Below, in pieces: positions 7,844 to 10,298 of a stretch of 24,163 bases of DNA; the first letter of the stretch is position 1; each line of letters starts with the position of its first letter. The notes under the pieces were generated by a model, which did not search any database, was not told the DNA's origin, and saw nothing but the letters and a program-made list of their open reading frames with translations. Both the position numbers and the translations under genes were made by a program. Source of the DNA: a virus (Duplodnaviria; Heunggongvirae; Uroviricota; Caudoviricetes); the IMG/VR virus record IMGVR_UViG_2565956616_000001, positions 1 through 24,163 of that record; one strand, written 5' to 3'.

Positions 7844-10298
7844 TTTTTATGCGCCGCCCCATAGCATCGAGGCAGAGCAGGCGGTGATTGGTGGATTGCT
7901 TCTGGATGATGACAGCAGTGAGCGCGTCCAGAAAGTTCTGGCGATGCTGAAGCCCGATTCATTTTACAGCCGACCACACAAAATCCTTTTCGAAGAAATA
8001 ACCAGAATGCACCGGGAGCAAAAGCCAGTAGATGGCCTGACGCTTTTCGATGAACTGGAGCGTAAATCGTTAACGGCGTCTGTTGGCGGTTTTGCTTATA
8101 TCGCTGAGATCGCAAAGAACACGCCAAGCGCCGCAAACATCGTTGCCTATGCAATGCAGGTTCGTGAAACCGCAATGGAACGCTACGCCATCAACCGCAT
8201 GACTGAAGCGACGGAATTGCTCTATTCCCGCAACGGAATGACTGCAACGCAGAAGTACGAAGCTATTCAGGCGATTTTCACGCAACTGACAGACCATGCA
8301 AAAACCGGATCGCGTCGCGGCCTTCGCTCATTTGGTGAGGTCATGGAAGACTGGGTTAGCGACCTTGAGAAGCGATTTGACCCGTCAGGCGAACAACGAG
8401 GAATGAGCACAGGGATCCCATCGCTGGACAGGATGCTGTCACCGAAAGGTCTGGTGAAAGGCTCTCTGTTTGTCATTGGCGCTCGCCCTAAGATGGGGAA
8501 AGCGCAACCGCTTAATTCACGCATTTTGCTTGCTGATGGTTCATGGACAACATTTCGTGACGTATGTGTTGGAGATTCCCTAGCATCAGTGGATGGACAA
8601 CCATCATTCGTGTCTGGAGTTTTTCCTCAAGGGGAGCGAGATATTTACCGAGTTACGTTCTCTGACGGAAGAACCGTTGATTGCGCGGATGATCATTTGT
8701 GGGAGATTCATAGTAACCGTATTACCGGTGGCGTTGATGTTGTAGACACCTGCCGCCTACGGGACATGATGGAATGCGTTCGCTATCAAAGCCGCATTCA
8801 TGTTCCTGGTATTAGCGGTGACTTCGGATTGCCTGTTGATTTAGGGATTAGCCCATGGCTGTTAGGTGCGTTACTTGGCGATGGAAATCTTGCAGGTACG
8901 CCACGAATCAGCATGACGGAACCATACATCATTGAGCGAGTAAGATCTGAAGTGGGTGACGATATTGAAGTCAGGCATGTTTCTGGCTGCGATTACTCCC
9001 TATCTCACAAGTTTAGCCGCAAATTATCTCTTACGCGGGTTATGCAACGGCTTGGTATCTACGGCCGGATGTCAGAGATTAAAATTATCCCGGATATTAT
9101 TTTTTCTGCTGATAAGCAAACTCGTATTGATGTTCTATGCGGATTACTTGAAACCGATGGTTGGGTTGAAGGAAATAATGCCCTGCGCTTTAGCTCGGCA
9201 AGCAAGTTCCTGTCAGATGGTGTAAAGCGGCTGGTGCATTCTCTTGGTGGCGCGTGTCGTATGACAACCAAACAGGAGCCGAAATTCAGTTATAAGGGAG
9301 AAATGCGCAAAGGTATGGATGCCCATATTTGCGCAATCAGGTTGCCTGATGAGGTTCTATCACACATAAAATCTCCACGCCTGAAGCAAAAATTCACTGC
9401 AAAACGCATCAAAACAAGTGCGCCTGTTATCACGTCGGTTGAGTATATTGGACGTGAAGAGTGCATTTGCATCATGGTATCCCACGAGAGACATTTGTAT
9501 GCAACTGACGGATACATTCTAACTCACAACACCACGCTATACAGCCAGATGGCAATCAACTGCGCAGTGCATGAGAAAAAGCCCGCTCTGATGTTCAGCC
9601 TTGAAATGCCAGGTGACCAGATACTGGAAAAACTGGTAGGGCAGAAGTCAGGTGTTAACCCGAATATTTTTTACCTTCCGGCGACAAATGACGCCGATGA
9701 CGGCTATCAGGGTGATTACGATGGTGACTTCAACAGGGCGATCGAAACAGCCAATCGCTTGAGTGAAATCGACATGCTTTACATCGACGACACGCCGGGA
9801 TTATCTCTGGCTCAAATCGTCAGCGAAAGCCGTCGAATCAAACGAGAAAAAGGATGTGTTGGCATGATTCTGGTCGATTACCTGACACTAATGACCGCTG
9901 AAAAGGCCGATCGCAACGACCTTGCTTACGGCATGATCACCAAAGGACTGAAGAACCTTGCCAAAGAGCTTGATTGCGTTGTTGTGCTTCTGACGCAGCT
10001 TAACCGCGCATTGGAAAGCCGAACCAATAAACGCCCATTACCAAGTGACTCGCGAGATACAGGGCAGATTGAACAGGATTGCGATTATTGGGTGGGGATC
10101 CATCGGGAAGGTGCTTTTGATGACAGCGTTCCTCCTGGTGAAACCGAACTAATCCTTCGTCTCAATCGTCATGGCAATACCGGCACGGTGTATTGCATAC
10201 AGGCAAATGGCGCTATTTATGACACAGACCAACAGTCTGCTGAAATGCGCCGCCGTGAACGCGAGGAACCGCAGTCCAAGAAGAAAGGAGGATTCTGA
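7833..10298 (+). CDS. dnaB: DnaB-family replicative helicase interrupted in frame by an intein
   Basis: N-terminus FYAPPHSIEAEQAVIGGLLLDDD is the DnaB N-domain signature; Walker A GARPKMGK is split from TTLYSQMAINCAV...PALMFSLEMP by a 343-aa insertion; C-terminal RecA-like motifs present (ILVDYLTLM, VVVLLTQLNR). ATG 7833 has GAGGGTG RBS; the track's GTG 7818 is an alternative start. Confidence 0.9.
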   Translation: MTDNFYAPPHSIEAEQAVIGGLLLDDDSSERVQKVLAMLKPDSFYSRPHKILFEEITRMHREQKPVDGLTLFDELERKSLTASVGGFAYIAEIAKNTPSAANIVAYAMQVRETAMERYAINRMTEATELLYSRNGMTATQKYEAIQAIFTQLTDHAKTGSRRGLRSFGEVMEDWVSDLEKRFDPSGEQRGMSTGIPSLDRMLSPKGLVKGSLFVIGARPKMGKAQPLNSRILLADGSWTTFRDVCVGDSLASVDGQPSFVSGVFPQGERDIYRVTFSDGRTVDCADDHLWEIHSNRITGGVDVVDTCRLRDMMECVRYQSRIHVPGISGDFGLPVDLGISPWLLGALLGDGNLAGTPRISMTEPYIIERVRSEVGDDIEVRHVSGCDYSLSHKFSRKLSLTRVMQRLGIYGRMSEIKIIPDIIFSADKQTRIDVLCGLLETDGWVEGNNALRFSSASKFLSDGVKRLVHSLGGACRMTTKQEPKFSYKGEMRKGMDAHICAIRLPDEVLSHIKSPRLKQKFTAKRIKTSAPVITSVEYIGREECICIMVSHERHLYATDGYILTHNTTLYSQMAINCAVHEKKPALMFSLEMPGDQILEKLVGQKSGVNPNIFYLPATNDADDGYQGDYDGDFNRAIETANRLSEIDMLYIDDTPGLSLAQIVSESRRIKREKGCVGMILVDYLTLMTAEKADRNDLAYGMITKGLKNLAKELDCVVVLLTQLNRALESRTNKRPLPSDSRDTGQIEQDCDYWVGIHREGAFDDSVPPGETELILRLNRHGNTGTVYCIQANGAIYDTDQQSAEMRRREREEPQSKKKGGF
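8502..9530 (+). mobile_element. intein (343 aa) with LAGLIDADG homing endonuclease domain, inserted between Lys and Thr of the helicase Walker A motif
   Basis: Removing residues A229-N571 restores a contiguous P-loop GARPKMGK-TTLYSQ; C-terminal block G GYILTHN followed by +1 Thr; two LAGLIDADG motifs (LLGALLGDGNLAG and LCGLLETDGWV); Hint-like N-terminal block ILLADGSWTTF. Confidence 0.8.

Follow-up and report, generated by a model that had tools for sequence, protein, structure and literature searches.

A candidate class 3 intein in the DnaB-type helicase gene of a P22-like prophage of Escherichia coli

The window analysed here is the whole stretch of 24,163 nucleotides (nt) of IMG/VR record IMGVR_UViG_2565956616_000001, a 24,163-bp contig of Escherichia coli 113303 that carries a P22-like lambdoid prophage. 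Its dnaB gene is interrupted by an in-frame insert at 8502..9530. This element is very probably a full-length bifunctional class 3 intein at site b of the DnaB P-loop, predicted both to splice and to home.

The interrupted helicase gene and the borders of the insert

The open reading frame (ORF) 7833..10298 on the plus strand codes for a phage DnaB-family replicative helicase of 821 amino acids (aa). It matches NCBIfam TIGR03600 phage_DnaB with 559 bits and also Pfam DnaB and DnaB_C, and the TIGR03600 match is broken in two, on either side of residues 224-566. The exact 821-aa protein is present in GenBank as ESA68746.1. Both this record and the PGAP annotation of strain PK5 use the ATG at 7833 as start codon, and a Shine-Dalgarno-like GAGGGT was recognized by eye a few bases 5' of it. 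The residue numbers C549/C551, W295, and T569 of the initial annotation presume a GTG start at 7818; counted from the ATG they become C544/C546, W290, and T564. In the following, residues of the insert are numbered from its own first residue, and an arrow marks an intein border or the insertion point. The gene has these parts:

7833..8501, plus strand: N-extein, the N-terminal domain and the first half of Walker A, ending with GARPKMGK (Pfam DnaB PF00772, TIGR03600).
8502..9530, plus strand: predicted intein of 343 aa, with HINT parts at about residues 1-105 and 300-343 and a LAGLIDADG endonuclease domain at about 110-295.
9531..10298, plus strand: C-extein, coding for what remains of the DnaB ATPase domain, with the stop codon (Pfam DnaB_C PF03796, E = 2e-53).

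With its 1029 nt (343 codons), the insert is in frame with the ORF and interrupts the Walker A motif GARPKMGK↓TTLY between Lys and Thr. Its border codons are GCG (Ala) at 8502-8504 and AAC (Asn) at 9528-9530, followed by ACC (Thr+1) at 9531-9533. A query for the empty site, composed of the 300 nt before 8502 fused to the 300 nt after 9530, was matched as one unbroken stretch in 357 complete E. coli genomes, with identity up to 99.3%. In E. coli 14EC047 (locus L003), the intein-less gene codes for a 478-aa DnaB-like helicase and reads CCT AAG ATG GGG AAA↓ACG ACG CTA TAC across the site; the empty-allele sequence around the insertion point is CCTAAGATGGGGAAA on one side and ACGACGCTATACAGCCAG on the other. 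Over the exteins, this allele differs from the window at 19 nt and at no aa. The insert corresponds exactly to AQPLN...ILTHN with borders GK↓A...N↓TT. These borders cannot slide at the protein level, since the empty allele has GK↓TT while in the window Ala follows Lys and Asn precedes Thr-Thr. The fragments annotated by PGAP independently end and start exactly at the equivalents of 8501 and 9531. As expected of an intein, this is a precise in-frame insertion in a conserved host protein that is missing from orthologous alleles.

The initial annotation had named Ala, coded by GCG at 8502-8504, as the first intein residue; this residue is in frame and its border is fixed by the empty allele. The same annotation had considered Cys, Ser, or Thr at position 1, reached through another junction, as the finding that would speak against its proposal, and the empty allele leaves Ala1 there instead. 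A misplaced N-terminal junction in an ordinary class 1 intein starting at a nearby Cys, Ser, or Thr could be imagined, as Ser6 lies five residues into the insert and homologues hosted by PhoH-like proteins start with Ser. However, any excision other than that giving GK↓TT would leave extra residues in Walker A, and among the DnaB-hosted relatives, all 79 in which the N-terminal junction is present start with Ala (from the genome search given below). Cys at position 1 was found in none of the homologues examined, and the non-nucleophilic first residue of the mycobacteriophage Bethlehem intein MP-Be was confirmed by N-terminal sequencing in published work. The shifted-junction class 1 reading is refuted by the empty allele and has a practically negligible probability.

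The Thr+1 codon is ACC in 7/7 intein-containing alleles and ACG in the sole empty allele checked (L003). This synonymous change lies 2 nt from the insertion point and might block re-cleavage or mark co-conversion.

In the rest of the window, Pfam recognized an Erf/Rad52-family recombinase, S24 repressor, CII, NinB, antirepressor, Q, large terminase, P22 portal, and P22 coat protein. For the near-identical region in E. coli PK5, the annotation lists Ral, N, cII, O, NinB-H, RusA, Q, and lysis genes.

Splicing blocks, predicted fold, and class of the intein

Class 3 inteins are defined by the absence of an N-terminal nucleophile together with Trp at B:12, Cys at F:4, and Thr at G:5, the Trp-Cys-Thr (WCT) triplet (PMC2807308, PMC3196547, PMC5222942). 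The roles of the signature residues are described in PMC2807308, PMC3196547, PMC5222942, PMC6195587, and PMC7664689. Ser or Thr (rarely Cys) at +1 and a place in the P-loop of a phage or prophage helicase-ATPase are typical of the class, but not strictly defining (PMC2807308). These inteins were proposed to be phage-derived and to favour helicase P-loops (PMC2807308, PMC3196547). The corresponding positions in the window, all on the plus strand, are:

8502..8504, plus strand: Ala1 (GCG), first intein residue, without a side-chain nucleophile; the border is set by the empty allele.
8682..8702, plus strand: block B core C61-A62-D63-D64-H65-L66-W67, with His65 = B:10 and Trp67 = B:12.
8856..8888, plus strand: first LAGLIDADG motif LLGALLGDGNL (Asp127); the Asp is kept in 19/21 homologues.
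9132..9164, plus strand: second LAGLIDADG motif LCGLLETDGWV (Asp219), matched by Pfam LAGLIDADG_3; the Asp is kept in 22/22 homologues.
9462..9470, plus strand: block F C321-I322-C323, with Cys323 = F:4, the predicted class 3 nucleophile and branch point.
9522..9530, plus strand: block G T341-H342-N343, with Thr at G:5, then the penultimate His and the final Asn, predicted to cyclise; none of the three varies.
9531..9533, plus strand: Thr+1 (ACC), which would serve both as C-extein nucleophile and, after splicing, as Walker A Thr of the helicase.

Blocks A, B, F, and G, His B:10, and His-Asn followed by Thr+1 are present, as is the HINT fold, so far as it is predicted. The WCT triplet is Trp67 (B:12), Cys323 (F:4), and Thr341 (G:5). 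The context is also typical of class 3, as Thr+1 is the Walker A Thr and the host is a phage DnaB in a P22-like prophage. The motifs DDHLWEIH, EECICIMV, and ILTHN were found where the initial annotation had placed them and supply H65, W67, C321, C323, T341, H342, and N343. Both block F cysteines that it had named are present, but the predicted F:4 nucleophile is the second (C323, which is C546 of the precursor), the first being at F:2.

When the intein was compared with all PDB sequences by phmmer, the top matches were gp41-1_WCT (6RIZ), Msm DnaBi1 (6BS8), and Mch DnaB1 (6RIX/6RIY), with DDHLW paired with AQHQW, ICIMV with RCVEV, and ILTHN with VPTHN. The class 3 inteins Msm and Mch are the best natural PDB matches to the splicing domain (E 3e-8 to 5e-7), and the class 1 intein gp41-1 (6QAZ) also matches it beside them, with E 1e-6. 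His65 and Trp67 carry identical numbers in the window intein, Msm DnaBi1, and Mch DnaB1. Cys323 was aligned with Msm Cys118 (RCVEV), with MP-Be Cys320 (KCIGI), and with the block F Cys of Mch DnaB1 in the same motif; the last is numbered Cys124 in PMC7664689.

Eight inteins with 24-52% identity, hosted by DnaB, primase-helicase, PhoH-like, UvrD-like, and the MP-Be host protein, were aligned, and the invariant columns include H65, W67, C323, I324, T341, H342, N343, and T+1. In an alignment of 23 homologues from databases, the signature residues are unchanged in every row covering those columns, with Cys323 kept in 18/18. Relatives were also sought with an alignment query in one genome per GTDB species, and full-length ones were found in 486 species-representative genomes. 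Each of the 80 best is inserted in the P-loop of DnaB, with the pattern GK↓AQPL...HLW...C-I...THN↓T. In 79 of these genome loci the residues H, W, C, T, H, and N do not vary, so that Cys323 is kept in 79/79, and at +1 Thr occurs 78 times and Ser once. A single-protein query against the species-representative genomes gave no match, because the species-representative E. coli genome is without the intein.

The WCT signature of class 3 suggested by the initial annotation thus appears sound when aligned with the characterised class 3 inteins Msm DnaBi1, Mch DnaB1, and MP-Be (His65 at B:10, Trp67 at B:12, Cys323 at F:4, Thr341-His342-Asn343 at G:5-7), and it is invariant in about 100 homologues. All features by which class 3 is recognized in sequence were found, and the assignment to this class is supported at that level.

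The conservation of Cys323 also bears on splicing by a class 2-like route, in which the direct attack on the N-terminal bond would come from Thr+1, with Cys323 left to a structural or activating role, as Asp F:4 has in class 1 and 2 inteins. Ala1 is common to the window intein and the class 2 KlbA inteins, and according to Tori and Perler, either route is in principle open to WCT inteins as long as Cys F:4 has not been mutated (PMC5222942). However, known class 2 (KlbA-type) inteins use Cys+1 and lack the WCT triplet (PMC2807308), while here the triplet is present and +1 is Thr, in our judgement a much weaker nucleophile; Cys F:4, moreover, does not vary among the homologues. Class 2 was rejected on account of Thr+1, the WCT triplet, and the invariant Cys F:4, and splicing by such a route is very unlikely.

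The 821-aa precursor should be ATPase-dead, because Walker A is split into GK and T. If the element is a class 3 intein, Cys323 (F:4), activated by His65 and positioned by packing of Trp67 and Thr341, would attack the Lys(-1)-Ala1 bond to form a thioester branch at block F. The N-extein would then be handed to the hydroxyl of Thr+1, and cyclisation of Asn343, assisted by His342, would release the intein. An O-to-N shift would restore the GKT P-loop and give an active 478-aa helicase. These steps are inferred by analogy with inteins of demonstrated chemistry (PMC2807308, PMC6195587, PMC5222942).

The AlphaFold2 model of the intein, computed with a 23-row alignment, has mean pLDDT 91.1 and pTM 0.91. 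Its N- and C-terminal parts are beta-rich and its centre is an alpha/beta domain. In Foldseek against PDB, PI-SceI was the top match (E 2e-16, TMq 0.74), with other endonuclease-bearing inteins next, and the central domain matched LAGLIDADG enzymes of I-DmoI type. The best mini-inteins were the class 3 Mch DnaB1 and Msm DnaBi1 (TMt 0.73-0.84 in full-span alignments). Pfam Hom_end_hint stayed below its curated threshold (20.9 vs 32.1 bits), and Pfam LAGLIDADG_3 was over the cut-off on the intein alone (24.4 vs 22.5 bits). Two motifs with conserved acidic residues and a predicted PI-SceI/I-DmoI-like fold are those of a LAGLIDADG homing endonuclease. This domain would cut empty dnaB at the P-loop codons, and repair would copy the intein in.

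Intein codon 251 (window 9253) is Ala (GCG) in the window, and Val in the other DNA alleles and in 11/11 examined full-length members of the protein cluster. Ala251 is a private endonuclease-domain variant of strain 113303.

Two further Cys near the active site do not belong to the signature. Cys61 (8682-8684, B:6) is Cys in 16/20 and 73/79 homologues. Cys321 (9462-9464, F:2), which forms a C-x-C motif with the catalytic Cys323, is Cys in 12/18 and 29/79. Most proteobacterial DnaB relatives have Cys-Cys at B:6-B:7, the window intein Cys-Ala. Reversible trapping of the helicase precursor by oxidative stress or zinc is conceivable from the C321/C323 C-x-C motif and the subfamily-conserved C61, and the Cys48-Cys118 disulfide of Mycobacterium smegmatis DnaBi1 is an analogue of such a redox switch. 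That the intein works as a conditional switch, gated by redox state or metal, on the replication of the prophage, and perhaps also homes actively in natural E. coli populations, is a speculative and unlikely extension. If the switch were true, replication of the induced lambdoid prophage would be coupled to the host redox state; if the active homing were true, E. coli would offer a native system for class 3 splicing and intein homing.

Distribution, annotation, and mobility in enterobacteria

The intein was found in 18/5,426 complete E. coli genomes, 16 of them with dnaB of lineage 1 and two with dnaB of lineage 2. The protein cluster that includes the 821-aa product has 449 members, from E. 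coli, Salmonella enterica, and Shigella boydii, and bears no other name than 'helicase DnaB'. The frame is open throughout in 7/7 retrieved intein alleles (821 codons or the lineage-2 equivalent). Among these seven, the intein has nine variable sites, five of them synonymous, while 23% of sites are synonymous (binomial P = 0.037). This excess of synonymous changes argues for constraint. The four replacements S26P, C84S, A251V, and S312T are all outside the catalytic residues.

One protein, P0002 (565 aa, NCBI/Logan), shares 99% identity with the N-extein plus the initial approximately 110 residues of the intein and then runs into an unrelated phage-stabilisation-like protein (PF11134). It suggests a deletion, rearrangement, or assembly chimera truncating the intein in some genome.

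RefSeq/PGAP splits the intein-containing dnaB into two pseudogene fragments labelled 'incomplete, partial in the middle of a contig', and the 1029-nt intein between them has no feature at all. The same was found in 6/6 complete genomes inspected, when window 7833-10298 was compared with loci L001 (5332-7797) and L006-L010. GenBank submissions name the 821-aa product 'helicase DnaB'. The RefSeq pseudogene label is an artefact of a pipeline that does not model the intein. As a result of the two-pseudogene annotation, surveys of RefSeq proteins will overlook the intein and score working prophage helicases as dead.

Where the exteins of two alleles diverge by 1-3%, their inteins diverge by 0-0.7%; within the closer lineage the figure for the intein is 0-0.5%. 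In E. coli ET791 (locus L009, 1501-2529) the intein differs from that of the window at 6/1029 nt (99.4% identity), whereas the exteins differ by about 35% in DNA and share 64% aa identity. Empty alleles exist in both extein lineages. A near-identical intein in strongly diverged dnaB genes points to recent lateral transfer (homing) between prophage helicase genes. This pattern, as expected of recent endonuclease-driven homing, argues indirectly that splicing and the endonuclease may both be functional. E. coli ET846 (NZ_CP100895.1) has two intein-matching places, one of them in a lineage-2 dnaB.

Several points weigh against a functional class 3 intein. Position B:7 is Ala62, whereas it is Asp in Msm (mycobacterial DxxH), Ser in MP-Be, and Cys in 77/79 proteobacterial DnaB relatives. 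WCT and Ala1 grafted onto a class 1 intein gave no splicing-competent class 3 intein (PMC7664689), so that the signature alone is insufficient in principle. The polymorphism test is based on nine sites only, and since prophages can be defective, an intact ORF says less about function here than in a cellular gene. In the ET791 allele, nothing clearly recognizable as a co-conversion tract extends beyond the conserved P-loop codons; identity at its junctions is raised over the first approximately 60 nt on the N side and approximately 30 nt on the C side only, and this is uninformative on co-conversion because these flanks are the conserved P-loop region. Finally, we infer from sequence that this intein splices, that it passes through a block F branched intermediate, and that its endonuclease is active.

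The Ala at B:7, unusual for the family, and the failure of WCT alone in the engineered gp41-1 would also suit a decayed intein with the class 3 signature, no longer splicing, in a defective prophage with a dead interrupted helicase, like the Arthrobacter Arsp-FB24 Arth_1007 pseudo-intein. Dead replication genes are tolerated in prophages, and the RefSeq pseudogene label would agree with it, were this label not produced by the pipeline. But Arsp-FB24 has neither Cys F:4 nor His B:10 (PMC3196547), while all catalytic residues are intact here. The ORF is open in all seven alleles and in the 449-member cluster, the synonymous excess argues for constraint on the intein, and the exteins are under strong purifying selection, judged from the 19 nt and 0 aa differences from the empty allele. 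Recent spread into a dnaB that is about 35% diverged needs an active endonuclease, and an insert that kills the helicase would face strong counter-selection on spreading. Decay is therefore considered unlikely, and the element more probably is a functional class 3 intein.

In a literature search, which did not cover the InBase class listings for enterobacterial DnaB inteins, no paper naming this particular intein was found. The published statement that E. coli, Salmonella, and Shigella are without inteins holds for the core genome only, in view of the intein described here (18/5,426 genomes, 449-member cluster) and of the intein in the P gene of Stx2 phages. Its near-identity across diverged dnaB genes makes the window intein a candidate for studying homing and class 3 splicing in a native, tractable host.

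Comparison with known inteins

The insertion point in the DnaB P-loop is known as site b (PMC4760082). Msm DnaBi1 is a class 3 intein in this P-loop, with the P-loop Ser at +1 (PMC6195587), and has the same host family and insertion point as the window intein (6BS8; Walker A Lys↓Ser/Thr, site b). Msm DnaBi1, Mle DnaB, and Mch DnaB1 (6RIX/6RIY) share with it Ala1, the H65/W67 numbering, Cys F:4, T-H-N, and a hydroxyl residue at +1. However, the mycobacterial DnaB inteins are mini-inteins of 139-146 residues without endonuclease, while the window intein has 343 aa and an intact-looking LAGLIDADG domain. Their local alignments with it span the splicing blocks only and overall identity is low. They reside in the essential chromosomal dnaB of actinobacteria, the window intein in an enterobacterial prophage dnaB. 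At B:7 Msm has Asp and the window intein Ala, and the redox partner Cys48 of Msm has no obvious counterpart in the window intein, whose subfamily conserves the Cys at B:6 and often that at F:2.

MP-Be, the founding class 3 intein, was located in Bethlehem by means of its published extein residues VSQDQ/TKNTF. It is 341 aa long (vs 343 aa), phage-borne, and has a LAGLIDADG endonuclease, like the window intein. In BLASTP the two align over the full length including the endonuclease domain, with E = 9e-20 and 25% identity, and they share His65, Trp67, Cys F:4 (320 vs 323), T-H-N, and Thr+1. MP-Be differs in starting with Pro1 after Gln-1, in having Ser at B:7, and in a host that is not a DnaB P-loop. 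It is placed in Bethlehem gp11 (locus L005, 7260-9971), between lysin B and portal, and the spliced exteins of gp11 match TerL_nuclease, the nuclease domain of the terminase large subunit, and not DnaB. It is absent from gp62, the annotated DnaB-like helicase of Bethlehem, and from the right genome arm. The 'mycobacteriophage DnaB intein' of the initial annotation is therefore to be corrected to the intein of a terminase-like protein. Bethlehem gp52 phosphoesterase appears to hold a separate, unrelated intein.

The intein DNA had no megablast match among 50,697 phage genomes, and tblastn against sequenced phages found relatives at no more than 46% identity. The closest of these is the Stx2-phage P intein (phi24B, Min27, and about 50 Stx2a phages), with 46% aa identity over the full length. 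Both occur in E. coli in a lambdoid replication module, and the Stx2-phage P intein has the signature of the window intein (GK↓ACPL..., DHLW, ECLCIMV, ATHN↓T). Its host is a Toprim plus gp4-like helicase and not DnaB, and at 46% identity it is a different intein allele. It was reported as an intein in 2012, without class assignment (PMC3430580). InBase has an entry 'EP-Min27 Primase', a name for which a literature text search gave no hit.

The initial annotation had seen mechanistic interest in a class 3 intein in an enterobacterial lambdoid helicase. This was overstated: the element is of the standard site-b class 3 type, present in hundreds of proteobacterial genomes, and the interest is further weakened by the 2012 report of the Stx2 lambdoid relative. 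A class 3 intein of the known DnaB P-loop site brings no mechanistic novelty, in view of that site, of the relatives in 486 genomes, and of the Stx2-phage P intein.

A survey from 2015 lists few DnaB inteins outside Actinobacteria and Cyanobacteria (PMC4760082). The 486 genomes with endonuclease-bearing relatives at 37-52% identity are mostly Burkholderiales, and also include Phycisphaerae, Thermoanaerobaculia, Rokubacteria, and a metagenome-assembled genome of Synechococcus. Proteobacterial DnaB site-b inteins (Burkholderia, Polaromonas, Aeromonas piscicola, Leminorella grimontii, and others) have the insertion point, architecture, and signature of the window intein and are 37-52% identical to it over the full length. 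Most of them are probably in cellular dnaB, judging from the extein motif G/ARPSMGK. With 48-52% identity, the alleles nearest to the window intein are those of Aeromonas (52%) and Leminorella (48%) and one of Enterobacter type (P0047, 50%). They lie in phage-type DnaB genes and have the phage-type extein GARPKMGK, as in the window.

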